Positions 6,913-34,034 of a stretch of DNA of 64,000 nucleotides are shown one piece after another. The stretch is from a virus. The stretch's first letter is position 1. Every line of letters begins with the position of its first letter. The position numbers and the translations under genes are program-made. The stretch lies in the IMG/VR virus record IMGVR_UViG_3300037042_003932, positions 1-64,000 of that record. One strand, 5' to 3'. Under the pieces are notes generated by a model. It saw only the letters and a list, made by a program, of their open reading frames with translations, did not search any database and was not told where the DNA came from.

Positions 6913-6963
6913 CTTTTAGCTCCTTTACAGAGTGCACAACGATTCAGAGGAAGTATAGGGTTT

Positions 6964-9175: not shown

Positions 9176-9181
9176 GGTACC

Positions 9182-10431: not shown

Positions 10432-10444
10432 TTTACCTCGATCT

Positions 10445-14295: not shown

Positions 14296-14360
14296 GATTT
14301 CCTCACATTGGTTAGGTGCCAACCCGAATACTAGGGCGGCGACTGGTTCCTATCAAGGGA

Positions 14361-16412
14361 TTAACCCTCGACGATTAGTTCACCGATACGTTCAGCAATT
14401 TTCTCGATGTCCAGCTTTGGTAACAACACCGTGTCTGTTGGTTGGGGTAAGAGATCAGCCAAAATAGAAGACAATTTTGGAGTGCCAGAAGCCATCCGAT
14501 TCAACCATTTGGTCGCAGCGTCAGTTCCTTGAGCTATGTACTTGGCACCTGGTTCAAAGATTTGTTTGTTTGCTGCTCTACCTGCCAAGCTGCCACCCAA
14601 AGCATTAAGCCCCGTAACCCCAATGGCAGTACTCGCCAATGGATGCTCTTGAGTGAAAGCACCGGCTTGGTCAAGAAGACGCCTACCTAATGGAAGACCA
14701 GGATGCCCTACAGGTTCTCCTCGGGCTAACCGTGACTTGTAGTCACTGCTGAGAAGAGTCATCAGCCCCAAAGTTCCAAACAGAGGAAGAGCCAAAGAAG
14801 ACATCTTTGACATCTCAGTTACCGTGGAGATTGGAACTCCTTGGTCAGTCATGTAGTGAGTACCCATATCCGGGAGATGCGTCGCACCAGCAGTAGCGAG
14901 TGTTCCTCCGACCAAAGGCTTTAACGCACCTAGACCACGGCGACTCAAACCAGAACCCAAAACCTTGTACGTGCCACCCAACAACGCAGCGCCGCCGACT
15001 GTCTTGTACACGTTGCGCTTTGCCACTTCGTCGTGTGACCTAACTGCAGCACCCCGCGTGGTTTGGTACCGAGTACCTGTCGCGGGGTCAGTAACAGTCA
15101 GTGGTGTTGAAAACTCACCTTCGTCTCTGAACTTCTCCGGGATTATGTTTCGTTTGAGGTAGTCGCCCATACCCGAAGTCTTCTCAAGGTAAGGAGAGAG
15201 TGCCTCTAGTATCCGAGGGTCTACAGCATCTCTATGAAAGTTGAGTGCGTCTGACCCCTCAAACGAATCCAGGATTTGCGGGTGCTCTGCGATAAGGTCC
15301 ATAATCGGACCCTGCAATCCCACGGACCTATCGACCCAACTCTTCTCTGGATGATGCTTTGGATATGACTTGAAGAAGATGAGCTTCATGAGCTCTGGGG
15401 TCTTCAGCATCATTCCGCCAGAGAAAGCAGATGACAAAGTCTTCTGCAGTGGGTAGTGCGAAAGGTCATGCAGGGTCTCGTCGGGGATTACTGGAACGTT
15501 TCCGCCCATGTCTAGAACTTGGTTACGCATTCGCTGAATGTTACAAAGTTCTGTGGGGTCTACGTTCTCAGTCTTAGCGTCTAACGGAATCCCTTGAACG
15601 ACCTTGTCGATGACTGCGATCTTGTGAGCGGCAAGCTTACGCTCGTCCATAGCTTCAAGATATTCACCCGCCTTTACGCCGGAAAGGATTTCATACGGCG
15701 TAGCGTTAGCGACTTTTTTCATCATGTATGCCGTTGGGTCCGCAGGTCGGATAACCCAAGAGATGTCAAAGAACTTGGGGCTAGGGTTGAGTGCTGCTAC
15801 CTTAACACCATTGATTACGTCCCGCATTTGGAAGCGGAGGTGGTCACAGTACTGAGCTCTAGTAGGCGCTCTGTTTCCACAAATCGTGCAAACGTCCCAA
15901 GCTACCTTGGTCCCCATACTGACCGGGGGGAACTCACCGTTCTTGATTCTCTCAGCGAGGTCAGGGGCCTTCGCGTTGTCGAGATCAATCAGGAGCTCGA
16001 CTCGGTGCATCGTGTCGTTCCAGAATGACTTGACGACTTTTCCGACTCGCTTCTCTGGGTCTTTGTTGACGTGATGTCTGTAGTTGTTTCCGTACAGCTC
16101 AAACGTATGATGCCAATTCGATAACGTTTCGGCTTGGCTGATCCACGGAGGACTCGCCATTGGCTTATATGGGGCATTGGGGAATCCATCTCCGTTACGG
16201 TTCTCAGCGTAATGCTCCCAGTCGCTCACAGCCAAAACATAAACAAAGCTGTGACCTGGAATAGGCTGGATCGTCTTGAAGTACTCGCTCCCTACACTGG
16301 CGTGCTTCGTGATGTTTTCGTAGCAAGCCCTGTTATTGGCCCACAGCATCACCGGCTGAACCGTAGCTTCTCCAGTAGGAAAGTACTCGTCGAGATGGAT
16401 TATTTTTTCCAT
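14361..16412 (-). CDS. Prohead maturation protease-like protein with long C-terminal extension
   Basis: NRNGDGF, YRHH, VELL, PVSMG..CTICGN..CDHL, FFDISWV..PAD motifs of HK97/herpes-fold phage proteases; start ATG 16412. Confidence 0.65.
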   Translation of the reverse strand: MEKIIHLDEYFPTGEATVQPVMLWANNRACYENITKHASVGSEYFKTIQPIPGHSFVYVLAVSDWEHYAENRNGDGFPNAPYKPMASPPWISQAETLSNWHHTFELYGNNYRHHVNKDPEKRVGKVVKSFWNDTMHRVELLIDLDNAKAPDLAERIKNGEFPPVSMGTKVAWDVCTICGNRAPTRAQYCDHLRFQMRDVINGVKVAALNPSPKFFDISWVIRPADPTAYMMKKVANATPYEILSGVKAGEYLEAMDERKLAAHKIAVIDKVVQGIPLDAKTENVDPTELCNIQRMRNQVLDMGGNVPVIPDETLHDLSHYPLQKTLSSAFSGGMMLKTPELMKLIFFKSYPKHHPEKSWVDRSVGLQGPIMDLIAEHPQILDSFEGSDALNFHRDAVDPRILEALSPYLEKTSGMGDYLKRNIIPEKFRDEGEFSTPLTVTDPATGTRYQTTRGAAVRSHDEVAKRNVYKTVGGAALLGGTYKVLGSGLSRRGLGALKPLVGGTLATAGATHLPDMGTHYMTDQGVPISTVTEMSKMSSLALPLFGTLGLMTLLSSDYKSRLARGEPVGHPGLPLGRRLLDQAGAFTQEHPLASTAIGVTGLNALGGSLAGRAANKQIFEPGAKYIAQGTDAATKWLNRMASGTPKLSSILADLLPQPTDTVLLPKLDIEKIAERIGELIVEG

Positions 16413-16419
16413 TAAGTCC

Positions 16420-16830
16420 TCAGAGAACCCCGCGAAGGATCTCCATAAAAACTTCACGCCCGTAGGTACGCATCGACGCCAGCTTGAGACGGGCAGTATC
16501 CGACACGGTGTCGTTGTGCAGCGCTTGAGTGAGCGCGTCATCCACAGTCAAAGCTGTAGCGATTTTGAGCTGCTCGACGTTACTCAGAGGCTCTTGGCGT
16601 TTGAACGCAGCCATCTTCGTAACGAACGAAGCAACCCCAACAGCCCCCGTATGCCCATGAATGCGAGCTTCCGTACGGATAGCATCCGTAACAACGTGAG
16701 CGATTTTGGGGTTCTCGTATTCTACCGCGATGCACTGCTCTTCCGAGGCTGTCTTGACCGCAACCTCTTCATAGAGGCCATGGCTCTTAGCCGCGTTCGA
16801 GATCTCGTGCGTAAAGATTTCAAGGTTCAT
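16420..16830 (-). CDS. K-x-A-rich head-associated protein
   Basis: KTA, KIA, KMA, KIA, KLA in 136 aa. Confidence 0.6.
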   Translation of the reverse strand: MNLEIFTHEISNAAKSHGLYEEVAVKTASEEQCIAVEYENPKIAHVVTDAIRTEARIHGHTGAVGVASFVTKMAAFKRQEPLSNVEQLKIATALTVDDALTQALHNDTVSDTARLKLASMRTYGREVFMEILRGVL

Positions 16831-16831
16831 A

Positions 16832-17047
16832 TTAACCTCGCAGCATCTTGAGGGCCGTTAAGCCGTCCATGATCACAGAGTGACGCATACGCCTGGCTGC
16901 AATCTTCTCGCCCATGTAGCGAGAGACGGAAGCGAAGCTGAAATCCGTCAGACCAGTGCGCTCTTCCGCGAGCTTGTGCACTTGGTGGTTTAGGTACGCC
17001 AGCTTCACGTTCTCGGGGACAACAGCATCGAGTTCTTCATACGTCAT
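16832..17047 (-). CDS. Small K-x-A protein
   Basis: GAGGTG RBS before ATG 17047; KLA, KLA, KIA. Confidence 0.6.
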   Translation of the reverse strand: MTYEELDAVVPENVKLAYLNHQVHKLAEERTGLTDFSFASVSRYMGEKIAARRMRHSVIMDGLTALKMLRG

Positions 17048-17058
17048 GATATCACCTC

Positions 17059-17715: not shown

Positions 17716-17717
17716 GG

Positions 17718-18674: not shown

Positions 18675-18683
18675 GCGTGCCTC

Positions 18684-19397: not shown

Positions 19398-22039
19398 TGC
19401 TGGTTCATCATTCCTTGTTGCGACATCTGGTTCGGACTCACAGCGTTACGGTTGATCTTGATGACGAGGTCACCGAGACCCTTAAACACCGTGCGAAGAC
19501 GCTCTTCAAGTGTCGTGTACTCCAGGTCACCAATCATCTGCTTGACCTCGGCCTCTTGCATCCAAAGGGTCAGCAAGATACGCCCGAGGTTGTCCACAGC
19601 CTTTTCGAGGTTGGGTACGTACGTCGAGATGATGTCGTGGAGAACTGGAGACGCCGCCATCATCGACATCGTAGCGAGGTCAAAGACACCTGCGTTGCCG
19701 AGGTCGCCAGCGGACTCAAGCATGTTGGGATTGATTTGGTCCGCAACAGCCTGTGGGTTCATGTTTCCCTCGGGCATGACAGGCTGCGGCGGGGGCTCGG
19801 GCTCTGGCTCGGGCTCTGGCGCAAGCATCCGAGCAGCAGTAGCCGGGGAAGCTTCAGCTCCAGCCGGGATGACGCCGCCAGTCACTTGCGTGATTTGGTT
19901 CGCCCGGTTCTGTATCTGCTGAAGGAGCTGAACCAGACGGTTGTTCTGGTCGGACTCCTGCTGCAGGGCTTGCTGTTGCTGCTGCATCTGATCTTGCAGC
20001 TGCTGCATACGGACCTGGTTCTCCTGAGTCAGCTTGTCCACAGCCTCGGCAATCGCGAGGTCCGTAGGAGACATCGGAGATGGCGCGGGCTGCTGCGGCA
20101 TCATACCGCCCATCATCGAGGGGTCCATTCCCTGCTGCATCGGGTCTCCCATCGGAGAACCGCCGCCACCCTCGGGAGACATCTGGGGAGCAGGACCCTG
20201 CGCCGGTCCCTGACCTTGCATCGGGCCTTCCATCCCAGGCTGAGCGACCTTCATCAAAATCTCGTTGATGGACGCCAGCTTAGAAGTGGGAAGGACGTAC
20301 ATAAACGGGAACCGCGTACGTTCTACTTCCACAAGAATCCCAGCAGCGTCCGAAACCGAGATGTTGTAGTCCGTCGCGATCTTCTCGACCGCCTTGGGGT
20401 AGTGGAGAGCGCATGGGTGATTCCCGACCCAGTACTCATCAACACCAGCCTTTTTGACTTCGATGGGGTCAGCCTTCGCGTCTTGCAACTTCGCGTCGAG
20501 CCAATGCGTGACCATCTTGGGATCGTCGGTGATGTTGCTCAGGCTATGGTTGCGCAGGTCGTACTTGTCCTTCTCATGGACATTCGTCTGAATGGCAACC
20601 CACTTGGCATCTTTGGGAATGAGGTACGTGTCGTTGGCCGCGTTCGTGATGGACTCACGTTTGGTGTTGTCGTCGATGATGTACTTAGTGCCATCCGAGT
20701 AATCTGAAATGATCTTCCTTACGCCTTTGGTATCCACGATGGAATGAATCCAAAAAGGCTTCGTGGCCTGCGGCTGTTTACCCGGACCCGCACAGAGGAA
20801 GAAACCGTAGTCATGGACAGATGGGGATGACCCACGCGCATTCCCGTGGATAATCGTCTTGATCCACTTGTAGTTGTTCAGCTCAGGGTCATCATCTTGG
20901 ATGAGCTCGCCCATAACGTGTGTATTGCACCACACCTTCTTACCGTCTTTGTTGACGATAAGATACTCAGTGGCGTTACGGCGAGGACTTGAACCGTATT
21001 CGCTGTAGTAGTCACTACTATAAACTAAACCGCCGCTCGAACCCTTGGGCTTAGGAATGATGTAGTAGATGTCCGGGGGAGCATCCATAAAGTAGAGGCG
21101 ATAGAACCCTGCGGTGTGACCAGGCTCAGTGAGCTTTAGGTCATGCTCAATCTTGAGAGCTACCTTATCAATGCCTCTACGTGTGTCTTGGACTGCAATG
21201 CCGTTTCGCAGAATCCCTTGGTACGCCTGTGCCGACTTAACGCCAAAAGCTTCTTTGAGTTCTGCAGCCGTTGCGGTCTTAGTGAACACCCTCACAACGC
21301 CAGGAGCATTGAGCGCAGCCGTCTTCGTTCGAGCCACATCTTGCGCAGCGACACGGGCATTACCGCGCTTGAACGCGTTTATAATGGACGTAGACCCGTG
21401 GAAGTGTGCCAGCTTAGCGAGGAGAACAGGGTGTTTCTCAAACGCTAGCTTTACGCCGTCAATAACGGACTTCGGCGCAGCGTCTCCGATGAACTCCAAA
21501 AACCGAGGATGGACTTCGTAGTTATTGGACTCCGCTTCCTTGAACATGGCCTTTGCGTGGAAGTCAAAGCTCATATCCGAAGCTAGACCCACACGACCCG
21601 AAGAAGTGAACGGGGGCATAACCACGTTTCGGATATCCACGTCCCGAGGAACGCCCTGTGGGATATCAGAAGGCTGGCCCATCTCTTCGAGAGACATCTT
21701 CGATACTTCCTCCAACCACTCTTTATTCATGGGAAGGAAGATATTCAGGTCTTTGAAGTAGAACACATCCAGCGGCTTCAGCTGGCTATCGCTCATAACG
21801 ACTGGAATGTAGATTGGCTTATTATCTTGCAGGAAGATAAAGGCACCAACTCCGCGTCCCTTTGTGGCGTTAGTCTCCAGAAGTTTGAAAGTTACAACCT
21901 GTTGCGCCATATCCGGGAATTTGGCGAACATCACGTTGTAAGCCATGCTCGCAAACTTTTGCTTAAAGATCTCTTCCGCTTGTTCAGCGGAAGGAAGCTG
22001 ACCATACGCTTGAACATCCGGGGACATAGGTGTTGGCAT
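19394..22039 (-). CDS. Large putative inner-head protein with Q/P/M-rich C-terminal region
   Basis: 881 aa; multiple K-x-A; low-complexity Q/P/M/G region and coiled coil. Confidence 0.6.
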   Translation of the reverse strand: MPTPMSPDVQAYGQLPSAEQAEEIFKQKFASMAYNVMFAKFPDMAQQVVTFKLLETNATKGRGVGAFIFLQDNKPIYIPVVMSDSQLKPLDVFYFKDLNIFLPMNKEWLEEVSKMSLEEMGQPSDIPQGVPRDVDIRNVVMPPFTSSGRVGLASDMSFDFHAKAMFKEAESNNYEVHPRFLEFIGDAAPKSVIDGVKLAFEKHPVLLAKLAHFHGSTSIINAFKRGNARVAAQDVARTKTAALNAPGVVRVFTKTATAAELKEAFGVKSAQAYQGILRNGIAVQDTRRGIDKVALKIEHDLKLTEPGHTAGFYRLYFMDAPPDIYYIIPKPKGSSGGLVYSSDYYSEYGSSPRRNATEYLIVNKDGKKVWCNTHVMGELIQDDDPELNNYKWIKTIIHGNARGSSPSVHDYGFFLCAGPGKQPQATKPFWIHSIVDTKGVRKIISDYSDGTKYIIDDNTKRESITNAANDTYLIPKDAKWVAIQTNVHEKDKYDLRNHSLSNITDDPKMVTHWLDAKLQDAKADPIEVKKAGVDEYWVGNHPCALHYPKAVEKIATDYNISVSDAAGILVEVERTRFPFMYVLPTSKLASINEILMKVAQPGMEGPMQGQGPAQGPAPQMSPEGGGGSPMGDPMQQGMDPSMMGGMMPQQPAPSPMSPTDLAIAEAVDKLTQENQVRMQQLQDQMQQQQQALQQESDQNNRLVQLLQQIQNRANQITQVTGGVIPAGAEASPATAARMLAPEPEPEPEPPPQPVMPEGNMNPQAVADQINPNMLESAGDLGNAGVFDLATMSMMAASPVLHDIISTYVPNLEKAVDNLGRILLTLWMQEAEVKQMIGDLEYTTLEERLRTVFKGLGDLVIKINRNAVSPNQMSQQGMMNQQ

Positions 22040-22151
22040 TGTTTGAACCTGTCCTGTTAACGACGACCAAGTTCTCCGAACACGAAAACACGTGCTCTCT
22101 GGTTTCGTCTTGAATTATATGGCAAGAATGCGTTGAGGGAAGAACAGAATG

Positions 22152-23069
22152 TCAGTGAACGGACTTGAGAGCATTCATGAGGATGCTTGTGGCCACATCA
22201 ACGACCTCGGCCTGGCTCGCCTGCTTCTGCTGTTGGGCATGCAGGTTGATCAGAATCTGTCGGCCTTCCTCGGTTGAGAGGAGTTGCTCGGCAGTCTTCT
22301 TCACATCAGCCTGGAGCTCGTTATGAACCGCAGGTTGAGGAGCGGCTGGGTGCTTCTTCAGCGGGACCGGCTGGGTCGTGGTCTGGGTCGTGCTGCCCTG
22401 GGAGACAACCGTTCCGCCGAGGTTCGCGTTGGTGGTCAGGTCCATACGGCCACCGCCCTGCGGGAGAACGCCGTCTTTCGACAGCTTCTGCAGGAACGAG
22501 GAGATCTTCACGTCAGCAAGGGTCGTGGGAGCTGGGGAGTCTTGCGTACCCGGCTGGTCCGGACGGACAGTCTGAGACCCGACTTCGCCGCCGCTGGTGT
22601 CCATGGAAGACGAACCCTTCGGACCCGTGACAGCCGAAGATGGATTCTTCTCGGCGTCAGTCTCGCCCTCGATGAAGACCTGCTCATGCGTCGCGGGACC
22701 CGAACCCGGATTCGTGGTGCCAGCCTCGAGAGCAGCCTTGTAGATCAGTCGCTCAGCGGTGGCATAAGCCAGCTTCACGATGTCCAGGTTCTGATCGGCG
22801 GCGACCTTGTTCAGGTTCTCGTCCATCGCACTGCCGGTCTTGGCAGCAATCGCCTGAGCGACTTCGACGAGCTTCTGAAGGATCGGAGCGACTTCGTTGG
22901 CACTCATTCCGGTTTCGTCGGTGACTTCTGGAGCTTCCTCTTCCGGAACCTCGTCAGCCACAGCGTCAGCGACCTCATTGGCCACCTTAACCGACGAATA
23001 GTGCACCAGGCCATTGCGCATCAGGCCAAAATTCAGACCGCGAACGTGTGATCTTTTGAAAAGTCCCAT
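22152..23069 (-). CDS. K-x-A-rich disordered head protein
   Basis: AAAGGAG RBS before ATG 23069 (MGLFKRS); KVA, KVA, KLA, KAA, KTA, KQA. Confidence 0.6.
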   Translation of the reverse strand: MGLFKRSHVRGLNFGLMRNGLVHYSSVKVANEVADAVADEVPEEEAPEVTDETGMSANEVAPILQKLVEVAQAIAAKTGSAMDENLNKVAADQNLDIVKLAYATAERLIYKAALEAGTTNPGSGPATHEQVFIEGETDAEKNPSSAVTGPKGSSSMDTSGGEVGSQTVRPDQPGTQDSPAPTTLADVKISSFLQKLSKDGVLPQGGGRMDLTTNANLGGTVVSQGSTTQTTTQPVPLKKHPAAPQPAVHNELQADVKKTAEQLLSTEEGRQILINLHAQQQKQASQAEVVDVATSILMNALKSVH

Positions 23070-23091
23070 GATTTTGACTCCTTTTAGTCCG

Positions 23092-23403
23092 TTACTCGCT
23101 AAGCGCGCCGTAGATGTCCTCGTTCGGGTCACCTGCGTACGCCTCGGGCGATACTTCTTGGTTGTTGGCGTTAGGGTCTTGGGGCATGTTTTCGTAGTCG
23201 CCCTCAACCAAACTATTCACGTCTGGCTGAGCGGGTGCACCAGGGGTAGGACCCATCAGTTGAACTCCGGTGGGGTTACCTTCGGCTTCGTCTGCCAAGT
23301 CATTACCCATGGCTTCAGCTGTTGGTTCGTCATAACCGGCAGTCTTTAGAGCTGTCGTTGCCCCGTAGGCATATGCCTGTTTTAGTTGGGAGACAGTCAA
23401 CAT
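23092..23403 (-). CDS. Small acidic K-x-A protein
   Basis: AGGAGG RBS before ATG 23403; KQAYAYGATTALKTAG. Confidence 0.6.
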   Translation of the reverse strand: MLTVSQLKQAYAYGATTALKTAGYDEPTAEAMGNDLADEAEGNPTGVQLMGPTPGAPAQPDVNSLVEGDYENMPQDPNANNQEVSPEAYAGDPNEDIYGALSE

Positions 23404-23450: not shown

Positions 23451-24035
23451 CTAAAATTGTCGTCCCTGATATTGAGGTTGCGGTTGTCCCTGTGGGTTAC
23501 GTTGTTGGAACCGTTGATACGGATTCTGCGGGTCCGATTGACCAAAAGTTCCCGTAGCTTTCTGAGCCACGTTTACAGCTCCACGCCCTATACGATCCAA
23601 CACGGGATACGCTACCATACTTCCAACCATACCTAATGGCCGGTATAGAGCGTTAGTCCCTAGCGTACCTAATGCTAAGCCACCAATGCTCTGCGCTTTG
23701 TCTGGAGCATCACTCTTCATAGTCTGGTAACCCATATAGGCTGGCAGACCGTAGAGCAACGCTTTATCCAACATCTTAGGAGCTTTCATTCCTTGATGCA
23801 TCATACTGTTGCTCTTGAACGCGTTACCAGACATAATCTCTTTTCCAAAGTTTATAGGCTCCCCTATCATAAACTTCCTAAGAGTTGTGTGCCATGGCTG
23901 CTTGGCACCGGCCTCAACAAGACTCTTACCTGCCTGTCCTGCTCTCGCCACAGCACCTGGAGGAATAGCCAAAGCCATCTTGGATAGCCCTAGAGATTGA
24001 TAGACTTCGTTCCAGCCTTCTTCGAACGGCGTCAT
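23451..24035 (-). CDS. Putative ejection/membrane-active head protein
   Basis: FEEGWNEVYQSLGLSKMA leader; Gly-rich hydrophobic helices; Q-rich tail. Confidence 0.55.
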   Translation of the reverse strand: MTPFEEGWNEVYQSLGLSKMALAIPPGAVARAGQAGKSLVEAGAKQPWHTTLRKFMIGEPINFGKEIMSGNAFKSNSMMHQGMKAPKMLDKALLYGLPAYMGYQTMKSDAPDKAQSIGGLALGTLGTNALYRPLGMVGSMVAYPVLDRIGRGAVNVAQKATGTFGQSDPQNPYQRFQQRNPQGQPQPQYQGRQF

Positions 24036-24036
24036 G

Positions 24037-25842
24037 CTAGTACTTACCCTTTTCGCCTTTGCCGAACTCAGTACCTAAAACATACGCTGGAACAGGGCTA
24101 GTGCCGTGAACATTCGAAATTTCTCCGAAGTGAGCCGCGTGTTGCAACGTAGTCTTCAAGTTTCGATGGGCTAGCCGCGCCATCCAGTCCGGGTTGTACA
24201 GCGGTGCTCGTGTAGCGGGCTTCATAACAAACTCAACTTCAGGTGCTCGTGGGGCGATGAACACGTCTTTGACCCCATGGGATTTTAAAAAATCAACTAT
24301 GGAGGGAGTAACGCGCATACCAACGGAGAAATGAAAATACTCTTTACCGAGAGTTTCTCCTAGAGCTTCACTCAGCTTGATTTGTTTTATCCCGCTAGCC
24401 AAAACAGATTTCAGGTTGTTGTAGTTTACAACGTCACCCTTGAAAAAGTTATTTCCTTCGTCGTTCAGGATACGGACATGATTCAACTCACCTAGAGCAA
24501 GAAGCTCAAAGTGACGTTGGTCCAGGTTTATCCCTTGGTTTTTGTAGATGTCTCGGAGGGTATTTACCATGTAAACCCGTCCCGCTCCGAGACCCTTGTA
24601 CTTCACAACCTCGTCGGGCTTCGGGATACCGTCGCCTAACATGTCACCTTTTTCCACAGTGTCGCCTACGCGAACTTTTATCCCCATGTTCGGAGACACA
24701 TAGTGCGACGTATCTTCTACGTGCACAAAGTGTCCTCCTTGAGGTGCTTTGGACACCTTGGATACAGTTCCGTTAATTGAAGCTAGTGTGGCTTTGTTCA
24801 AAAACAGATTGGGCGACTCAACCGCTTGTCTGAAGCCCTCTAACCCTTGTAGCTGCAGACGCCCAGACGCCGCAGTAGTACCGCCGTGCTTTGCGGACAG
24901 AGCGAGCTGCGTCAAAGGTTCTGCCATCGCCTGAGCTGAACGAACGCCAATGTTCGTTCCAATGTCATGCATCCGACCCTTCTCGTTCAAACCCTGACAA
25001 TGCTGGCACACACCGTCGCCCGCTTCACAAGTCATAGGAGAACGGACAAGAATCTTCCCTACGACAGTTCGAGCTAATGAGGGTTGGATGGCTGGCGTAA
25101 TCAGCGTATTACGGCGGAAAGGACCGGTGTCCCTAGCGAGGTAACGGTCAATCACATCAGAGTCCTTGGGGTCCATGAGGATTCCGTTGTGCGTCCCACA
25201 GTCTTGTTCAGTAATGAGAATGTTGTTCATATTACTGACAAGAATCTTGGACAACTCACCCGGCTCCGAGACCGAAGTACTGGACTTGATAGTATCAAGA
25301 ATGGCTTCGCTACTCACTACCCAGTTATCCGCAGGGGTCATCCCCTCAGAGTAGGACCGACGAATGAGCCAAGGCTCTACGCGACCACGACCATCACGTC
25401 CGTAAACTGGGGACGTAACGATCTTTGCGTACTGAAGCTTGTTTCCACGAGCACCCGAGGACACCTGGGCAGTCATAGACCCAGGATGACGCATGGCCAA
25501 GTCTGTCATCTCAGGGTGAACTCCCTCGAGGAGTTTACGACGCTCGTCGTCTGTCTTGGCTTTGTTCATCTTTGCCGCGACAGGATTCAGTATCAGGTCT
25601 CGAGCTTTGTAATCAGGTTCAAGGTCATCAAGACCGACAGAGAGACCTTCTGTAGTTGCAAGATGGTCTCCCAAGCGCTTAACGTTACCAACGATCTTCG
25701 CGTATGTCTGTGGATCGGTCCTAGAGAGCCGTGTTAACGTACTCTTAAGATCTTTTCCAGACACAGCTCCGTCAAACTTGTAACCCTCAGGCATGAGGTT
25801 ATTGATGAGGTGCTGCCCAAAGGGTTGTCCAACGGTAGTCAT
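24037..25842 (-). CDS. rpoC: Multisubunit RNA polymerase beta' subunit, C-terminal half
   Basis: SGARG, EQDCGT, RSPMTC..GVCQHC zinc site, IGVRSAQAMAEPLTQL..H trigger loop, WMARLAH. Confidence 0.9.
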   Translation of the reverse strand: MTTVGQPFGQHLINNLMPEGYKFDGAVSGKDLKSTLTRLSRTDPQTYAKIVGNVKRLGDHLATTEGLSVGLDDLEPDYKARDLILNPVAAKMNKAKTDDERRKLLEGVHPEMTDLAMRHPGSMTAQVSSGARGNKLQYAKIVTSPVYGRDGRGRVEPWLIRRSYSEGMTPADNWVVSSEAILDTIKSSTSVSEPGELSKILVSNMNNILITEQDCGTHNGILMDPKDSDVIDRYLARDTGPFRRNTLITPAIQPSLARTVVGKILVRSPMTCEAGDGVCQHCQGLNEKGRMHDIGTNIGVRSAQAMAEPLTQLALSAKHGGTTAASGRLQLQGLEGFRQAVESPNLFLNKATLASINGTVSKVSKAPQGGHFVHVEDTSHYVSPNMGIKVRVGDTVEKGDMLGDGIPKPDEVVKYKGLGAGRVYMVNTLRDIYKNQGINLDQRHFELLALGELNHVRILNDEGNNFFKGDVVNYNNLKSVLASGIKQIKLSEALGETLGKEYFHFSVGMRVTPSIVDFLKSHGVKDVFIAPRAPEVEFVMKPATRAPLYNPDWMARLAHRNLKTTLQHAAHFGEISNVHGTSPVPAYVLGTEFGKGEKGKY

Positions 25843-27293
25843 TAGCCGTTACCGCCAGGAATGATCGGAGTTGTACCGCTCACGGCACCAACCGAGAACG
25901 GGTTACCCCAATCGGTAGGTCTCTCAAGATGCTTGTCTACGGGATTACCTGCGACAGAGGTTACAGGGTTCACGTTGGTGTAATCCGAATCCATTGCGTT
26001 GAGCGCTTTTGCCAACTGCCCGGCACCAGTGTTCTCGTCTGAAGCAGGCATCGGTCTTCCGGATTCAGAAGTGGATGCGTCACCTGATTGACCTTGTCCT
26101 GCGGATTCGGCTGCACTCTCGGCACCTAGTTTCCGCAACATGTCGAAGTAACCTCTCCAATAAAATGACGACGCTACTTTTTCAGAGATGTTTTTCATTA
26201 ACCACTTGTCCTTGTTGGTTCGAACCAGAGCATACCGCTCTTTTTTAGCGTCGCCTACTGTTCGTTCGAATTTTAGACTATCCGGTTTCGAGGACAAAAT
26301 AGAGATTGGTTCTTTGTGTTTGATCTCTACCGAGCCACGTCCGTACCCCGTGTGTATTTGGGCAGGCCCGCTTTCGCCAAAGGTAAGAGCATAATTTGAC
26401 GTGTGCGTAGGCGTCTGGATAGCGAGTAGAGGCTTCCCTCCTACTTCAGGGAACTTAGCTTTAGGTATTGCCCAAGAGTGGGCATGGTCCGTGTCAGGAT
26501 CGATCAAACGTAAATCCCAATGAGGACCCGCCTTAACAGCGTCATGCTGTTGTACTGACATCGTCCAGTCAGCATCCCCTAAAGTAGGTAGGTCGTGTGT
26601 CTTCTTGTCCCGTGGAATCCCAGGGGCGAACTCAGACGACATCAGACGCTTAGGGTTAGCGTCCATCGCTGGGATGAAATCATTGAGCTCGTGTCGTTTG
26701 AGAGGTACTGATGCTAATCCAGTTTCTGTATTCAGTGAATACAACCCCCGAATGGAGCCTTTGTCATGCAACGTAGATGTATCGAGTCTGACTTGCGAAG
26801 ACTTAGGAGGAGCCATGACCAACTTAGGGTTAGTCACTGTGAGCGGCTTCAACTTTTCTTCAAGAAGCTTTCGAGCTACATCCGTAGGCATGCTGTCGTT
26901 GAGGTGCCCCCGGATATAGAACCCCCGACCCCCTGAGAACGCTAGCGACGTTCGGGCTACTTCGGGAATCCCTTTCAACAGCGTATCGATTTGTTTTACG
27001 ATTGGCTTGAGTTCGTGTGTGGTTACTTCTTTGCCTGGATCGACATCCACCCACACAACGTTTGTTTCTTTCCCTATCGTCGGATGGAACTCAACAGCCC
27101 GCTGGTCCACCAGCCTCTTGAGCTGCGCTTGGTTGTTGAGCTTGATAGGGTTGCCGTCGAGATTCCTACGGTAAAAAGGTTTCCCCTCTTCGTGCTGCAC
27201 GAGCGTTAGGGCTCCGTCTCCATAAAAATTACGGAGTAAAGAGTCCTGGATATGCTGCGTGGTGTAGTAGTCTACGACGTCTTGTTTGTTCAC
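25842..27293 (-). CDS. ligD: LigD-like AEP polymerase + 3'-phosphoesterase (no ligase domain)
   Basis: AEP motifs VEFHP, VDVDPG, FSGGRG, RLD, YSL..SVPL; phosphoesterase motifs VQQHDA..HWDLRL, SWAIPK, LAIQTPTH..Y, GYGRG. Confidence 0.8.
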   Translation of the reverse strand: MNKQDVVDYYTTQHIQDSLLRNFYGDGALTLVQHEEGKPFYRRNLDGNPIKLNNQAQLKRLVDQRAVEFHPTIGKETNVVWVDVDPGKEVTTHELKPIVKQIDTLLKGIPEVARTSLAFSGGRGFYIRGHLNDSMPTDVARKLLEEKLKPLTVTNPKLVMAPPKSSQVRLDTSTLHDKGSIRGLYSLNTETGLASVPLKRHELNDFIPAMDANPKRLMSSEFAPGIPRDKKTHDLPTLGDADWTMSVQQHDAVKAGPHWDLRLIDPDTDHAHSWAIPKAKFPEVGGKPLLAIQTPTHTSNYALTFGESGPAQIHTGYGRGSVEIKHKEPISILSSKPDSLKFERTVGDAKKERYALVRTNKDKWLMKNISEKVASSFYWRGYFDMLRKLGAESAAESAGQGQSGDASTSESGRPMPASDENTGAGQLAKALNAMDSDYTNVNPVTSVAGNPVDKHLERPTDWGNPFSVGAVSGTTPIIPGGNG

Positions 27294-30200
27294 TTCTTCT
27301 CACCAATCGTTACGCGAGTACCTAGGGTAATTTTACTGTCATGATACGCCTTCATCGCATCGGCCTGTGTAGCGAAGTGAACAGGAGCATTATGCTCGTC
27401 CTGTTTGCTCGCGTGTGTCAGTCCCATTGTCGCTTCCTGTCTCGGGAAAACAAAAAGGTCTGACCTCGACTTATCCCCGTACAGCGTGTTCGACAGCGTC
27501 ATCTTTTTGACGTCTTCAATCGCAGCATTCGACACCGGAGTATGAACCATCATCGTGTCACCGTCGTAGTCGGCCCCGTGGGCGACTTCAATGAACGGGT
27601 TCACCCGGATAGTCTGACCGGCTACCGGAACAGGGAATGCCCCCGTGATATTGAAACGATGCAGCGTAGGTGCCCGGTTGAGCATGACGGGACGTTCCTT
27701 TATCTCGCGCTGGAACGCTTCTTTTGCTACCGGGTGTCGAGCCTTAATCATCTCTTGTGCTGTTAACGGGGAATACCCCTGTAACACGAGACGCCGGATC
27801 AAGAATTTCTCATACATCGTCCAGATCATATCTTCCGGAAGACCCACTTCGTCCAACCCCAAGTTGCTATCGGGCACAATGGTTCCGCGTCCCGCGACAT
27901 CCTGGGTCTTCTTCATGAGCTTCGATTGGAAATATCCGAACTTGGGACTCCCAGCTCCTGCGATGTACGTCAAGAACCCTTTGTGCCCTCGAGCTTGGGA
28001 CTTGGTGGTGACTGGGTCGTTCACTCCGTACACCGCACCAACAGCTTGATGAAGCATGGGCCGTAGCTTTGCCTCTTCAAAAGGCATGGTTCCTGCGCTC
28101 TTAACTTCCTTGAACTGGTTGTTCACAAAAAGGAGATCCCGGTAAAGCGGGTTAATGTCTCCATAAATGAGTTCTTGACCGCCCTTACCTGGAATGACAG
28201 GACGTACAGATGGAGGGACAACAGGAATCTTTGAGATAATGTACGCATCTCCTGGGGATAGATTCTGTGACTTCAACGCCCTGACGTACTTGAGCTGTTT
28301 GACAACCCCATCGAGGTCAGCACCCTTGGCCTTCTTACTCTTCTCTTCCAGCTCTTTCTGCTTCTTGTCCAAGTCGATCTTGTTCAACTCAGAACGTAAG
28401 AACCCTGCGCCCTTGTCGTTGATTGTCTCCGTCAATTTCGTTCCAGTCATCCCCAAGAAACGTCGGACCGGCTCTGCGAAGATCGGATTGACGATGGGCT
28501 CCGCGAGCTCGATGTGTGCCCACCGGTCTCCCTTGAGGCCCCCGGTAATGCCTGGGTCAAAAAGACCCCCCTTCTCGGGCTTGAGGTCTTTCGCACGGAC
28601 GAGCTTTGGTTCAAGAATCTCACCAGAGGACATCTTCAGCGTGTCGCGGTCCGTCAACGGGCCGAGAGCGATATTTGAACCGGAACGCGTTACCTTAACT
28701 CCTGCTCCAACAAGCATGTTCAAGAACTTGTCTGACGCGAACGACGTCTTGGGTGGGGGTGTAGGATACCCCATCTGCAGAGCTCGCCAGAACTCATCGT
28801 TCTTCTGACTCTTGAGAGTAGACGCTTCGAGCAGAACATTGCGGGCGTTGTGCCCCACAAGAGCCCCGAACTCCATCATGCCCAACGCTTTGGAGCTCGC
28901 ATCACCACCCTTGGTAGGCTGAAGGTTGGCGTCGTAACTCCCGATGTTTCTAGCACTGTAGTTAACGTCGGTGCTCTTAAACGCCTTGAACAAGTAGCTG
29001 CGCCCGACGAAAACCCCAGGAATAGTTTTGCCGGTGGTCGGGTCAAAAACGGTCTCTTTATCCTTGACGTCATGCTTCTTGAGGAGGTCCTTCACGTACT
29101 GAACGTTGTTCCTTCCAGTGAAGTTCTCAAGTTGAATTGGCTTCCCTAGCTTCTCGGCTACCTTCCCTACTGCTGCTTCTAATATCTGCGCAGGATTGAT
29201 ACGAGAGACAACACCTGCAGACGTCACCAACACGTCGATGGGTTTTCCCGATTCATCTTTGACCATGTGGTCGTCTGGGATTATTTGGGAAACAACACCT
29301 TTGTTTCCGAAATTGCCCATCATCTTGTCGCCAATCACCATTGGTTCCTTAACCTTGACTGTGATTGCAATTCTCTTTGGGGTCTTTACGACGTCAATCA
29401 CTTCCCCGGTGTGGTGGTGGTCCCAAATTTCAGAAGCGTTCCGGAATGGCTTCACCAACGCTTTGTGGAGTCGGCCAAGCATAATGTCATCAGGAGTCAT
29501 TGTGGACTTCCTAAGACCAAAAACCACGGGGTCCCCTGCGTTCAGCTTAGTGCCCTTCTTCACGATGCCCTCTGCATCCACTAGTCCGTATTGGTCTCGC
29601 TTGTACTCGTGCCCGTAGTAGACCTGGTGTTTGTCTTTATCAAACGTCATGTCTACGTCTCTCGAGACGATAATCTTGTACATCTTCTCGGACGTCAGCT
29701 TCTTCGAGGCACCCTCACTGATAACGATTGCGTCGTTAGAGTTGGCACCCTTGTAGGGCATGTAAGCCACCGAGAGGTTCTTACCCAACGCAAGCTGCCC
29801 GTCTTTCGTGTAGTTGGACTCAGCCAACATTTGTCCTGCGGACACATGGTCACCCACACGAACTTTGAGGTCGTGGTGCAAGAAAGACTTCGCCGCTAAC
29901 GGGAAGTTAGTCTCGTAGTGAACCGTAACCTCTCCTTTTCCGTTATCCGGCTTTATGTACAAGTAGTCCTTGTCCACACGACTGATTATCCCGGAAACAG
30001 GCGCTCTTGGGTTTATGGTCTCAGCCATGACTGTGACCATCGGCCTACCTGTTTGCGAGATGGACTGTACGTATGGAACTTCCCGATCCACCAAAGACAA
30101 CGCTTGTGTCTGGTACTTAGACCCCATAATCACACGATTGCCCTGGTTGGACTCGAGGAATGGAATCAGATTGGTGGCAGGGCTATACAGCACCGTGGAG

Positions 30201-31648
30201 TGTGGTACTTGGTACTGAACAGAAGACGCCGGTACTTTTCGAACAACTCCGTTCACCAACGCGTCTACTTGCCCCTCAAGCTTCTGTTGAGGGAACGCAA
30301 CTATGTTGTTCTGGATTTGTCCTGCACGGATGAACGTGAGTTTTTTTCCGTTCTTTACGTCGTACATGGGGACGTAGATATTCCCCTTGCTGTCCTTGTG
30401 TAGCATCATCGCTGCTCTGACATCGACGCCCGCACGGAAAGACTCAGGAGTCCGCATAGGGTCAATAGCCCCGATTTGTGTGGGGTGAACCATACGCGCT
30501 TCCATAGGAATAGCTCGCTCTGAACTGATACCGCCTTCACCAAGAGACGTAATACGCATGGAGGAATCGATTAGCTCCATGGGATTTGTCTGCGTTGGCA
30601 CCGAGACTAGCTGGGACGTGTTGATGAATTTCAACAAACCAGGAGTGAACGGAGCTGACGGTATGGCGTTACGTAGATCCTTTTTCGCCTCAATCTTTAT
30701 CGAGGCTTTACGTGCAATATCTCGCGCATCTAGTTTGATTCTCTCTTTGAAGAAGTCGTCGATACCGTACAGAGACTTGAAGTCCAAGTTGTCTCGGTCA
30801 TCAACTTCGTCGTTGTTCTTAAAAATCTTCAACACCTTCTTGGATGCATCCAAGATGACATGAGGCGTTACGTTTTCGTAAGGCTTGCCTAACGTAACGG
30901 CGTTCACCTCAGGGCTCATTGTAGCCTTGGTGTACCTGTTGAAGATTTCTTTTACTTTTTCTTCAGGCGTCGTGAGCTTCAAAGACTCCCGTCCGTAAAC
31001 CGGGACCACCTTGTTGTACAAACGGTCCACGACGCCGCTTACGTTCTTGGGGGCCATTTGCCTGTTTTTCTCAGCCAGGTCTTTTCCCCAAGCAGAAGAT
31101 ATGTCCTCGTGCGTTAAGCCCGCTCTTGTCAAAATGGGGTAGAGTGGAATCTTGGAAGCGCCGTACTCCAACTGCATCTCACCTTGTTCAGGGTCCATGG
31201 TGACGTTGAAGTTCGCCCCTCCCTGCATGTTGAAGTTAGCTTCAAGAATTCCGTTAGCTCTTTTCCGAGCGTAGACTCCCGGCTTAGGACGCACCATGCT
31301 GGAGACTGAGTACTCGTTGCCACCGACAATCAGGGTGTGCCGAGGGGTGAACCATGGGATTTTCGCTAAGGTAAAGTTTTTTATCTTATCAGTCACTTCC
31401 CCTGTAGCGTTGTCCCGTACCGTGATAGTCCCCTTGATGTGTTCGAACAGCGAATTCCCCTCGAGAATCGCCGCCTTCTGTTCTGTCGATGAGTAATCTT
31501 TACCGTGTACAGTGACGTCGCTAACGTTGATGGTCTTGCTTCTCGATTTAATGGGAAATGATTCCTGAATACCCTCCACGACTTTGTTTCGGATGTGTCC
31601 ACGCTTAACGTCAGCTCCGACAAGGAATGGCTGGATATCAGAAGTCAT
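27290..31648 (-). CDS. rpoB: Multisubunit RNA polymerase: beta subunit fused to beta' N-terminal half
   Basis: Beta motifs TPES, LALGKN, DAIVIS, GDKMMGNFGNKGVVS, QPTKGG; then beta' motifs GLFDPGITG, HIELAEP, RGTIVP..VGLP, NRAPTLHR, ADYDGD. Confidence 0.92.
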   Translation of the reverse strand: MTSDIQPFLVGADVKRGHIRNKVVEGIQESFPIKSRSKTINVSDVTVHGKDYSSTEQKAAILEGNSLFEHIKGTITVRDNATGEVTDKIKNFTLAKIPWFTPRHTLIVGGNEYSVSSMVRPKPGVYARKRANGILEANFNMQGGANFNVTMDPEQGEMQLEYGASKIPLYPILTRAGLTHEDISSAWGKDLAEKNRQMAPKNVSGVVDRLYNKVVPVYGRESLKLTTPEEKVKEIFNRYTKATMSPEVNAVTLGKPYENVTPHVILDASKKVLKIFKNNDEVDDRDNLDFKSLYGIDDFFKERIKLDARDIARKASIKIEAKKDLRNAIPSAPFTPGLLKFINTSQLVSVPTQTNPMELIDSSMRITSLGEGGISSERAIPMEARMVHPTQIGAIDPMRTPESFRAGVDVRAAMMLHKDSKGNIYVPMYDVKNGKKLTFIRAGQIQNNIVAFPQQKLEGQVDALVNGVVRKVPASSVQYQVPHSTVLYSPATNLIPFLESNQGNRVIMGSKYQTQALSLVDREVPYVQSISQTGRPMVTVMAETINPRAPVSGIISRVDKDYLYIKPDNGKGEVTVHYETNFPLAAKSFLHHDLKVRVGDHVSAGQMLAESNYTKDGQLALGKNLSVAYMPYKGANSNDAIVISEGASKKLTSEKMYKIIVSRDVDMTFDKDKHQVYYGHEYKRDQYGLVDAEGIVKKGTKLNAGDPVVFGLRKSTMTPDDIMLGRLHKALVKPFRNASEIWDHHHTGEVIDVVKTPKRIAITVKVKEPMVIGDKMMGNFGNKGVVSQIIPDDHMVKDESGKPIDVLVTSAGVVSRINPAQILEAAVGKVAEKLGKPIQLENFTGRNNVQYVKDLLKKHDVKDKETVFDPTTGKTIPGVFVGRSYLFKAFKSTDVNYSARNIGSYDANLQPTKGGDASSKALGMMEFGALVGHNARNVLLEASTLKSQKNDEFWRALQMGYPTPPPKTSFASDKFLNMLVGAGVKVTRSGSNIALGPLTDRDTLKMSSGEILEPKLVRAKDLKPEKGGLFDPGITGGLKGDRWAHIELAEPIVNPIFAEPVRRFLGMTGTKLTETINDKGAGFLRSELNKIDLDKKQKELEEKSKKAKGADLDGVVKQLKYVRALKSQNLSPGDAYIISKIPVVPPSVRPVIPGKGGQELIYGDINPLYRDLLFVNNQFKEVKSAGTMPFEEAKLRPMLHQAVGAVYGVNDPVTTKSQARGHKGFLTYIAGAGSPKFGYFQSKLMKKTQDVAGRGTIVPDSNLGLDEVGLPEDMIWTMYEKFLIRRLVLQGYSPLTAQEMIKARHPVAKEAFQREIKERPVMLNRAPTLHRFNITGAFPVPVAGQTIRVNPFIEVAHGADYDGDTMMVHTPVSNAAIEDVKKMTLSNTLYGDKSRSDLFVFPRQEATMGLTHASKQDEHNAPVHFATQADAMKAYHDSKITLGTRVTIGEKK

Positions 31649-31779: not shown

Positions 31780-32302
31780 CAGTTCCAGCGGAGCCGCCCG
31801 TGGGCTCCGCACTCTTATTATCGTATTCTTCCGAAAAGACCTTCTTTGGGTTCGGAGGATACACGGTATCCTTTTCTTTTTCTTTTTGCTTCCGCTCGAG
31901 TTCAGCGATGTGTGCTGGGTCAGCAACCATCCACATGATATGCACACACCGAGCGTCACTCTCTCGACGATTAAAGAACTCTTGCTTCTGTAGGAGGGCT
32001 TTTCCGCTCAAGCAGAGGTTGACTACTTTCTCGTACTCCGCGTTCTCGTTGTGGGGACACGTGTAGTCACCTTCTGAAGGAATCAGAACCTCACCTGAGT
32101 TAATATCGTTACTACACCTGGGACACATGTCGTAGGGCTTCCAGATAACGAAAACTCGGGAAGCGTACTGCACACGGATTTGATCGGCTATTTGGTTCGC
32201 TTCTGTCTTTGGTTGAACGAGGTTTCCCCCTTTGTTTCCACCAAAGACATTCGTGAACTCAAACTTCTGCGCTGACTCTACCTGAGACCTAAAGTCATCC
32301 AT
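31769..32302 (-). CDS. Hypothetical protein with CxxC/CxH motifs
   Basis: 177 aa, coupled to portal; CPRC..CPH. Confidence 0.6.
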   Translation of the reverse strand: MDDFRSQVESAQKFEFTNVFGGNKGGNLVQPKTEANQIADQIRVQYASRVFVIWKPYDMCPRCSNDINSGEVLIPSEGDYTCPHNENAEYEKVVNLCLSGKALLQKQEFFNRRESDARCVHIMWMVADPAHIAELERKQKEKEKDTVYPPNPKKVFSEEYDNKSAEPTGGSAGTASP

Positions 32303-34034
32303 TCATAGTTCCTTGTGCTGGGTCCTGTTGTAGCATCTGGGTATTCTGCAGCTTCAAGCGCTGCACCACGACAGAGTACAATATGAAATCTTCCATTTGC
32401 AACTGGTGCAATCGACTCTTCTTGGCCCCGTACTCCATGCCTGAGAGCTCAGCCACAACCTGATCGGCGTTGGCTATGACCTGCTGCTGGTTATACGAAC
32501 CCGGAGTTGTGTTGGCCTCTTGCTGAGATTGAGCTGCTGCAGCATTTTGCTGCTTCTGCATCTCCATCTGAATCTCATTACTGATACGTGAGCCACGAAG
32601 AGTTTCATTCTTGATACGCTCCTCTTCGCGTTTTGGATCGATTTCAAAAATCTCACACATCGTCGTATCAGACAGCACTTGAGACCCTGTCTGCTTTCCA
32701 GATTGCCACACGTTGTACATGAGTTGCTGTCTCTCAAAATCATCAACCATTCGGAACGGAGTGAGACCCAACTTCACTTTTTCCCAACCCAGGAACTCGG
32801 CGCACTTGTCGTCCATCCACTGCATAAGGTCGACGATGTCAGCGATGTGTGTTGCGAGCTGGTTCTCGATCATGCGCAACGTGGCTTCCATACCTCGACC
32901 AGTAAGACCGCCGTACAAGAACTCCATAGGGATACCGAGAGTTGCGACGATGCTCTTCTCAGCCTCTTGGATTTCACCCAGAGTCAGTAGAGCTCGTCCT
33001 TGCCCACCGAGCTGAACCATACCCACCGGGATAGGCGAGTACATGATATGGAGGGGATCTTTACGGTGTAACCGAATGTTGATGTCGAGTTCGTCGCGCC
33101 ACTTCGACAAGCTAATCTGCTGCACAGGGTCAGCAACCCCAGAAGCCTGAGAGGCGTGGAGAATCCTGAAAGGAACTAGGTAGTCCAACGCGATGGCTTC
33201 GTTAGCCTTACGCAGAATCTGTGTGAAATGGAACCGCTCGAGCGCCGCTAGGATCGGAGGAAGTCCCCACTGCGGATTGATGCCCGCAGGAGCACCCACC
33301 TTCATATGGAAGATTGCGTCACGTGCGAACTTGAAAGGCTTGTGCTCTTTGATTGCCTTCAAGAAGCCAATCGGCATGGTGTCGATGAGCATCTTGTGGC
33401 CTGAGTTCACACGCGAGACAATGGCAGACGGAATCTTGTAGTAGTAAGTTGACTCTCCGGTGAGTGGGTTATGGTCGATGTCGAGGTCCTTGGCGTCCCA
33501 TCGAATGAAATTGATTCCCTTACTCAGCAGGAGCTTCCGGTCCTCGATATTCTCTTCGCCGACTACGGCTCTTTTTTTGCACGAGTTGCATGTGTACGTG
33601 AACTTGAGGTGCGAAACGTCAAATGTGTACGTTGTGTTCTTGATATTCGACAGAGACGAACACGACGGGCACTTAAGGTAACGCACGAATGGTTGATACA
33701 TAGATATGAAAGCGTTACCATAAACGTACTTATCAAGAGAACACTTGATAAGGAATTCACGGACACGCAACGTCTTCTCAAGAAGGTCTTTGTGCTTGGT
33801 CTTGAGATGCTCGTTAACCGTCTCGTAAGTGATCTTCGTGATCGGGTATTCGCCAAACTTACGCAGAGCAGCAAAAATGTGAGGACTTTGGTAGAAGAGA
33901 TACTCACACCAGATAAAGAGCTCTTTTAGCCTCTTGGGCGTGTAGAGCTGCGAATACTGGTAGTACGGATTTGAATGAGTACCATCCATGCCCCCGTGAT
34001 AGGGGTCGAACAAACGCATTGTGTCAGTCGTCAT
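32295..34034 (-). CDS. Probable portal protein
   Basis: 579 aa; DKYVYGNAF, IFHMK..WGLPPI, IVATLGIPMEFL portal-like motifs; zinc-ribbon insert. Confidence 0.65.
   Translation of the reverse strand: MTTDTMRLFDPYHGGMDGTHSNPYYQYSQLYTPKRLKELFIWCEYLFYQSPHIFAALRKFGEYPITKITYETVNEHLKTKHKDLLEKTLRVREFLIKCSLDKYVYGNAFISMYQPFVRYLKCPSCSSLSNIKNTTYTFDVSHLKFTYTCNSCKKRAVVGEENIEDRKLLLSKGINFIRWDAKDLDIDHNPLTGESTYYYKIPSAIVSRVNSGHKMLIDTMPIGFLKAIKEHKPFKFARDAIFHMKVGAPAGINPQWGLPPILAALERFHFTQILRKANEAIALDYLVPFRILHASQASGVADPVQQISLSKWRDELDINIRLHRKDPLHIMYSPIPVGMVQLGGQGRALLTLGEIQEAEKSIVATLGIPMEFLYGGLTGRGMEATLRMIENQLATHIADIVDLMQWMDDKCAEFLGWEKVKLGLTPFRMVDDFERQQLMYNVWQSGKQTGSQVLSDTTMCEIFEIDPKREEERIKNETLRGSRISNEIQMEMQKQQNAAAAQSQQEANTTPGSYNQQQVIANADQVVAELSGMEYGAKKSRLHQLQMEDFILYSVVVQRLKLQNTQMLQQDPAQGTMNG

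Follow-up and report, generated by a model that had tools for sequence, protein, structure and literature searches.

Polymerase (Pol) and 3'-phosphoesterase (PE) domains of the LigD type are known as parts of cellular non-homologous end joining (NHEJ), from which phages were previously known only to borrow Ku. They are arranged as Pol-PE-ligase (Lig) in LigD of Mycobacterium tuberculosis (Rv0938) and as PE-Lig-Pol in LigD of Pseudomonas aeruginosa. The PE domain strips 3'-phosphates and trims 3'-ribonucleotides, the polymerase domain (PolDom) adds ribo- or deoxynucleotides to 3' ends and over short gaps, and together they leave a ligatable nick. Both domains also handle ribonucleotide-ended primers. 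The gene considered here, P0001, encodes a Pol-PE protein and lies between the two halves of a phage RNA polymerase (RNAP) in the IMG/VR record IMGVR_UViG_3300037042_003932. This record measures 143,878 bp and is estimated to be about 80% complete; its first 64 kb represent the window that was analysed, to which the coordinates given below refer.

P0001 shares with LigD both folds and all catalytic residues. It has the Pol-then-PE order of the mycobacterial type and the N-terminal TK-D-YY motif that is common to the LigD PolDom, the only motif seen to align as regards the 5'-phosphate pocket and synapsis loops of NHEJ polymerases. It differs from LigD by the lack of a ligase domain, the lack of Ku in the genome, scores far below the equivalog cut-offs, a tyrosine in motif II (found in half of the clade), and a tail of 115 amino acids (aa). 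The best sequence and fold matches of its PE domain are stand-alone archaeal Pol/PE proteins (Methanocella paludicola 5dmu and 5dmp, Korarchaeum 3p4h, and M. barkeri 3p43). In archaeal NHEJ, the ligase is a separate entity, as in the case of P0001. However, archaeal cells make Pol and PE as two proteins, which act together with Ku and a ligase, whereas P0001 is a fused phage protein encoded inside an RNAP operon.

The mycobacteriophages Corndog and Omega circularise their genomes by NHEJ (Pitcher et al. 2006, cited in PMC4351075). As far as that citation goes, they likewise borrow part of the NHEJ toolkit while the host supplies the rest, but they encode Ku and use the host LigD, whereas in the window phage Pol and PE are encoded but Ku is not, and the ligase would have to come from the host. 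In Corndog and Omega, the Ku gene lies outside the virion block.

The RNAP of the window phage resembles the virion RNAPs of jumbo phages. In Salmonella phage Arash (PMC10585845), the orthologous two-chain RNAP (gp206 and gp216) is encoded directly after the portal gene, but the genes between its halves are small, mostly on the opposite strand, and include no Pol-PE. A further likeness exists to the capsid-targeting sequences of phage T4 and to polyvalent proteins (PMC5512222), in that otherwise unrelated head-module proteins have in common a short leader beside a presumed protease site, and enzymes are delivered with the DNA. The putative targeting and cleavage leader of the window phage has a different motif (G-Y-x3-L-x-K-L-G with K-x-A), and it is C-terminal in the Pol-PE protein.

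Literature searches returned no description of a phage Pol-PE or of a virion-RNAP operon with LigD-type modules. The novelty lies in the architecture, the tail and the context; the domains themselves are known. The large uncultured phages of this clade, whose contigs come from environmental metagenomes, carry Pol and PE modules, together with ligase modules in sister lineages, in shifting combinations within the operon of an RNAP whose counterpart is abundant in particle preparations of an isolated relative. The reading preferred here, if only tentatively, is that the Pol-PE protein may be co-packaged and ejected, and may then heal DNA ends or fill gaps on the incoming genome.

Position of the Pol-PE gene

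P0001 (25842..27293, minus strand) encodes 483 aa and starts with GTG. It is preceded by the gene for RNAP β fused to the N-terminal part of β' (β-β'N; 27290..31648, minus strand; 1452 aa, with the motif GADYDGD) and followed by the gene for the C-terminal part of β' (β'C; 24037..25842, minus strand; 601 aa, matching Rpb1_5), the orthologs of Arash gp206 and gp216, respectively. A first-pass annotation of the window had described an overlap with both RNAP genes, and the junctions bear this out: the β-β'N stop and the Pol-PE start share GTGA, and the Pol-PE stop and the β'C start share TAATG. Judging from these junctions, Pol-PE is translated together with both chains of the phage's only multisubunit RNAP. 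A single RNAP set is present in the record and in each of three relatives that are 95-100% complete.

P0001 has 187 homologs, many of them full-length at about 40% identity. For a survey of synteny, which the first-pass annotation had proposed as a check, 34 related IMG/VR loci were gathered by an alignment-based search (a locus search with the single sequence yielded none). The gene order g579 (portal-like), g177, β-β'N, Pol-PE, β'C, g194 ... g726 is identical in 32 of these 34 loci.

The portal gene g579 (32295..34034, minus strand) stands at the head of this co-oriented block. The portal assignment is based on homology to Arash gp204 (29% identity, E 7e-82) and on a protein-atlas lead; its AlphaFold2 (AF2) model, with a predicted local distance difference test (pLDDT) score of 53, was left unused, and the profiles of g579 and g318 found no match in the PDB. 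The gene g194 (23451..24035, minus strand) lies immediately 3' of β'C. Further downstream in the head block, g726 (14361..16541, minus strand) contains a prohead-protease-like segment, which matches a PHROG for head maturation protease (E 2e-8) and has protein-atlas leads to Peptidase S78/S77 with a score of only 0.8. Searches against Pfam and PHROGs came back blank for most head-block genes.

Domains and active sites

The protein begins with a polymerase domain of the archaeo-eukaryotic primase (AEP) or NHEJ type (residues 1-218; 26640..27293, minus strand), which is supported by Pfam, invariant columns, alignment to 2iru, and Foldseek. An inter-domain linker (residues 219-237; 26583..26639, minus strand) follows, with an E-F-A-P-G-I-P motif that is invariant in the alignment of relatives and is also kept in relatives with a domain inserted between Pol and PE (Pol-X-PE). 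The LigD-type 3'-phosphoesterase domain (residues 238-368; 26190..26582, minus strand) was recognised by Pfam, a family profile, and Foldseek. Pfam LigD_Prim-Pol (PF21686) matches residues 51-213 with 34.2 bits, above its cut-off of 27.4, and LigD_N (the PE domain, PF13298) matches residues 248-316 with 26.5 bits, below its cut-off of 31.1. A phmmer search of the PDB with the single P0001 sequence found no match, and a family profile was needed. The profile of 34 relatives matches the archaeal PE structures 3p4h (E 5e-14) and 3p43 (E 3e-11), the PE domain of P. aeruginosa LigD (3n9b, 5e-5), and the PolDom of M. tuberculosis LigD (2iru, 8e-4).

In the AF2 model of P0001, residues 1-218 and 238-368 mostly have pLDDT values above 90. 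The top Foldseek match of the Pol domain is the LigD PolDom 2r9l (E 3e-11, template modelling (TM) score 0.66), and its top 14 matches are LigD Pol or Prim-PolC structures; 5dmu (the NHEJ polymerase of Methanocella), 2fao and 6sa0 are also among its matches. For the PE domain, LigD PE structures rank first, with a TM score of 0.83 for 3p4h. P0001 is accordingly best described, as far as sequence and predicted fold can tell, as a two-domain end-processing enzyme of the bacterial and archaeal NHEJ type.

The active sites were compared in an alignment of the 34 relatives, whose identity goes down to 40%. All Pol motifs are invariant (motif I, D83-x-D85; motif II, S120-G-G-x-G; motif III, D171) and align to those of 2iru. 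Equally invariant are the PE residues Q248, H250, H258, D260, R262, H297 and Y301, which align to QKH...HYDFRL...EDH..DY of the P. aeruginosa PE chain 3n9b. From published LigD work, we take H250, H258, D260, R262, H297 and Y301 to be the catalytic ones. P0001 therefore carries the LigD 3'-phosphoesterase active site on a PE barrel and the catalytic motifs of the NHEJ PolDom clade of AEPs, with a tyrosine for the histidine of motif II.

This tyrosine had already been pointed out in the first-pass annotation, which read motif II correctly as SGGRGFY and remarked that histidine is usual there. Motif II of P0001 is S120-G-G-R-G-F-Y126, with Tyr126 at the position of the motif II histidine in the M. 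tuberculosis PolDom. Among 259 collected relatives, the last residue of the motif is Tyr in 85 and His in 73. Since the two alternate, Tyr126 is an ordinary variant within the clade and no sign of decay. Its interpretation as an inactivating change was rejected on the same grounds.

The absence of a ligase part was correctly noted as well. Neither Pfam nor NCBIfam finds a ligase domain within P0001, and nothing ligase-like follows 3' of the PE domain. The NCBIfam equivalogs give 60.9 bits for PRK09632 (cut-off 989) and 21.9 bits for TIGR02778 (ligD_pol, cut-off 214.7). By its missing ligase domain, its missing Ku partner and these scores, P0001 falls outside LigD proper. No Ku or ligase had been seen in the window, and a search of all 143,878 bp of the record detected neither Ku nor any ATP-dependent ligase, NAD-dependent ligase or member of an RNA-ligase family. 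The three relatives of 95-100% completeness likewise yielded neither an ATP-dependent ligase nor Ku; PF02735, the Ku family, is missing both from the record and from four relatives with a completeness of 90% or more.

Some relatives are named "DNA primase" by JGI, which, together with the AEP fold, could suggest a replicative primase. This is hardly credible. The nearest folds are NHEJ polymerases, P0001 has no helicase, PriCT or zinc domain, and its gene sits in the head block. The replication module lies apart on the other strand and comprises an SNF2 helicase, two PD-(D/E)XK nucleases, a sigma factor, and a DnaG-zinc-ribbon protein of 1195 aa next to PolA. With this separate DnaG-type protein and PolA, the phage does not need the AEP domain as a replicative primase. 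The candidate was rejected because of the missing partner domain and the phage's own DnaG-type protein in a separate replication module.

The C-terminal tail

The tail of P0001 comprises residues 369-483 (115 aa). The AF2 model contains helices at residues 376-388 and 423-432, and the rest has pLDDT values below 50. A candidate processing site, K372-V-A374 (26172..26180, minus strand), is located in the linker between the PE domain and the first helix and was defined by the conservation of K-x-[AG]. It is the only K-x-A in P0001. The tail helix (residues 376-390; 26124..26168, minus strand) has the pattern G-Y-x3-L-x-K-L-G, of which G381 and K388 are invariant. The remaining tail (residues 391-483; 25845..26123, minus strand) combines a variable acidic or Ser-rich spacer with conserved elements, namely a P-L-E-x2-D-x3-P-A-G-x-L helix (about residues 410-435) and a terminal R-L-N-R...W...G-x-S-P; it has no paralog in the phage proteome. 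The tail is neither a ligase remnant nor random sequence.

The short linker behind the PE domain is otherwise variable, and K-x-[AG] occurs in it in 82 of 87 relatives, whereas shuffled linkers contain it in 19 on average and 31 at most. K-x-A is also about two-fold enriched in several head-block proteins (65 observed, 29.7 expected) and is not enriched elsewhere in the genome. Individual values, observed/expected, in the region 13711-23207 (minus strand) are 11/2.5 for g13711, 12/3.0 for g17718, 14/5.0 for g19394, 6/2.7 for g22152, and 3/0.3 for g16832.

The first-pass annotation had taken the G-Y helix for a tag of head cargo. The tail does carry conserved short motifs, and its helix recurs as an N-terminal leader beside K-x-A in other head-module proteins, in relatives as well. 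A hidden Markov model (HMM) of the helix matches the N-terminus of g3851 (3851-4180) in the same genome (E 1e-3). In G002, a complete relative, it matches a 69-aa open reading frame at its N-terminus (E 2.4e-6) and gives a weaker hit to the g194 ortholog. The g194 proteins start with F-x-x-G-[YW]-x3-[LF]-x2-L-G-L-x-K-x-A, a leader kept in 13 of 15 orthologs (including L002-L032). A shuffle test of the helix by regular expression is circular, as the pattern was derived from its own hits, and was given no weight. The helix HMM found no match in the Arash region.

A module of helix and K-x-A thus appears to be common to unrelated head-block proteins, being N-terminal in the small ones and C-terminal in the Pol-PE protein. 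It would fit a targeting leader that is cut off by a prohead protease, and the protease-like segment of g726 fits such a removal. The module offers a testable candidate for a head-targeting signal.

Relation to the particles of phage Arash

The β-β'N protein is 36% identical to Arash gp206 over 98% coverage, and three Vibrio phages match similarly. The Arash gene order is portal gp204, a small gene, gp206, then β' gp216, followed by structural proteins. Ortholog pairs of the window and Arash are g579/gp204 (portal), β-β'N/gp206, β'C/gp216, g881/gp218 and g218/gp221. In Arash particles analysed by liquid chromatography-tandem mass spectrometry, gp206 is the most detected protein, with 3516 spectra, and 1210 spectra were obtained for gp216, 877 for portal gp204, and 1149 for gp218 (PMC10585845). 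Because these orthologs are abundant in particle preparations, the RNAP of the window phage is very probably a virion RNAP. The abundance of the portal and of both RNAP chains also makes it plausible that the products of the operon, including the Pol-PE protein, are packaged.

Between the Arash RNAP genes (OQ632216.1, 134702-139329; L110:16535-21162) there are nine small genes, mostly on the opposite strand, two of whose products, gp210 and gp213, were detected in particle preparations. The Arash gene after β' encodes a "DNA helicase", gp217, with 1148 spectra. The window contains a gene for a sigma-70-family factor (40575-41591, minus strand), whose Arash homolog is gp196. Another Arash sigma factor, Gp10, was detected in particle preparations, and because of this the virion RNAP of the clade may be sigma-dependent.

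Possible role during infection

If the Pol-PE protein is a packaged end-healing enzyme, as preferred here, it would be made late and would enter the procapsid via its C-terminal tail, whose leader-type helix is common to other head-module proteins. The prohead protease might cut the tail off at the conserved K-x-A. Ejected together with the DNA and the RNAP, the protein would on entry clean and extend 3' ends that are damaged or cannot be ligated, whether at nicks, gaps or genome termini. The AEP polymerase would extend 3' ends by (ribo)nucleotides and close short gaps, and the Mn-type 3'-phosphoesterase would take off 3'-phosphates and trim 3'-ribonucleotides. A ligase would seal the ends afterwards. 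In sister lineages this may be their own PE-ligase fusion; here a host ligase would be needed, because the lineage has no ligase. The packaging of the Pol-PE protein, the cleavage of its tail, DNA as its substrate and the timing of its action are what we infer from the domains, the tail and the Arash particles. If the protein is injected, it would mean that phages supply DNA-end repair of their own in the first seconds of infection, which would bear on the survival of a linear genome in the face of host nucleases and on its circularisation.

Several observations speak against this reading. The Arash proteome comprises 116 proteins, and its authors warn of possible carry-over (PMC10585845). Pol-PE is absent from Arash and from every GenBank phage in both DNA and protein searches. 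With no ligase or Ku found, the phage alone would be incapable of complete end joining, and all contigs are classed as linear, with no repeats. The RNAP chains have no helix of the tail type, and K-x-A is neither depleted nor enriched in them. The likeness of the helices consists of short motifs with marginal E-values. Finally, the Pol-X-PE and stand-alone forms lack the tail, which the family thus does not require.

The Pol-PE protein could alternatively be a late, intracellular enzyme of DNA maturation or repair that is not packaged and heals nicks, gaps and RNA-terminated 3' ends in concatemers before or during packaging, its place in the head block serving for timing only. The same domains and active sites would suit this role, as would the location of the gene within a late-type structural block; in relatives, moreover, PE-ligase fusions also occur near the terminase gene. 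Such an enzyme is nevertheless unlikely, as this explanation accounts neither for the conserved non-catalytic tail with its shared leader-type helix nor for the strict placement between two particle-associated RNAP chains.

An extended form of the preferred reading, in which the head delivers a "transcribe and mend" kit, is a good deal more speculative and rather improbable as a whole. The tail helix would recruit the Pol-PE protein, g194 and others to the scaffold core and would be clipped at K-x-A, and the injected Pol-PE protein beside the RNAP would patch nicks and ends with ribonucleotides before phage gene expression. If true, this would amount to a new packaging signal and the first NHEJ-type enzymes as injected virion proteins.

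Sister lineages

A HMMER search yielded 1139 cluster representatives at E ≤1e-3. A pattern scan of 185k species genomes found no P0001 relative; the relatives were found only in viral contigs. The wider family includes one true LigD with the order Lig-Pol-PE, and Pol-X-PE proteins of 650-1030 aa in which X is an HD, NUDIX, GNAT or P-loop kinase domain (P0127, P0131, P0134, P0135, P0138 and P0139). As a group, the Pol-X-PE relatives offer a source of new enzymes for end processing. In P0124, a full Pol-PE is fused to an SNF2 helicase.

The inter-RNAP space is also occupied by other forms of the enzyme. At locus L039 (9956-13051), a 1031-aa Pol-kinase-PE protein is encoded between the RNAP halves, and at L058 a 491-aa protein of PE and ATP-ligase. 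The order at L082 is β-β'N, PE, a small gene, β'C, and then Pol. At other loci, PE lies upstream of the portal gene or near the terminase gene.

Such variation, and the changing domains of the Pol-X-PE proteins, would agree with a counter-defence cargo of the polyvalent-protein type that undoes damage or signals from host defence and does not serve the phage's own DNA metabolism. The inter-RNAP space would then be a variable cargo slot and the Pol...PE frame a carrier of changing effector domains. The HD, NUDIX, GNAT or kinase inserts, the different slot content among lineages and the giant multidomain proteins with Lig and Pol of the relative G004 (see below) can be cited for this idea. It is improbable for P0001, since Pol-PE is strongly conserved with every catalytic residue kept, which points to a core function and not to a fast-changing effector. 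In addition, the survey of polyvalent proteins records PrimPol domains for conjugative elements alone and lists no LigD-type domains among those of phages (PMC5512222).

The modules also occur apart from the interval between the RNAP genes. At L069, L075, L088 and L109, the RNAP halves are adjacent, and PE is located 2.5-3 kb downstream. In G006 (L034 contig; 6579-10073, minus strand), β, β'-N and β'-C form one frame of 2564 aa, a fully fused single-chain RNAP of the multisubunit type, with Pol and PE encoded by genes of their own upstream of the portal gene. G004, a 159-kb contig that is 90% complete, has no detectable RNAP. It encodes three giant proteins in a row adjoining a g726 homolog (L035:550-15506): one of 1796 aa, whose N-terminal part is an ATP-dependent DNA ligase, one of 1743 aa with LigD Pol and rubrerythrin, and one of 782 aa with LigD PE.

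These loci bear on the suggestion, also made in the first-pass annotation, that the Pol-PE protein is an accessory RNAP subunit. As a partner of the RNAP, it would act on RNA or RNA-DNA 3' ends, with its tail docking on the RNAP, so that transcripts are trimmed, extended or turned into primers. The translational coupling to both RNAP genes and the invariant position in 32 loci would be expected of such a partner, the tail is confined to the RNAP-embedded form of 480-530 aa, and LigD Pol and PE are suited to ribonucleotide-ended primers. The suggestion has nevertheless become doubtful. Pol and PE are separate genes beside the fused RNAP of G006, PE is remote from the adjacent halves at the four loci mentioned above, and Arash-type isolates have the RNAP without Pol-PE. 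Co-occurrence with the RNAP thus does not extend to all lineages, and an obligate subunit is unlikely because G004 has Lig, Pol and PE with no detectable RNAP.

What stays constant is the association of LigD-type modules with the head and virion-RNAP block and not with the RNAP itself, which speaks against an obligate RNAP subunit and for a function in healing and sealing DNA ends, expressed and perhaps packaged with virion proteins. In a wider sample of 10 PE genes, six have a match to an ATP-dependent DNA-ligase domain and are read as PE-ligase fusions, four of these matches being below the Pfam cut-off; a seventh, at L079, matches the ligase OB domain only.

The β-β'N gene itself also varies. 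Sites in its region were noted in G001 (L008 contig, 8600-10699), G005 (L006 contig, 83015-84130) and L002 (3114-9998). In several relatives, the β-β'N frame is much longer (1793 and 1965 aa) and still open, and its match to Rpb2_6 breaks near model position 228, a pattern resembling an in-frame insertion of the intein type. In the Vibrio phages D181 and D148, the matching β-β'N region is present in three pieces, with an annotated homing endonuclease.

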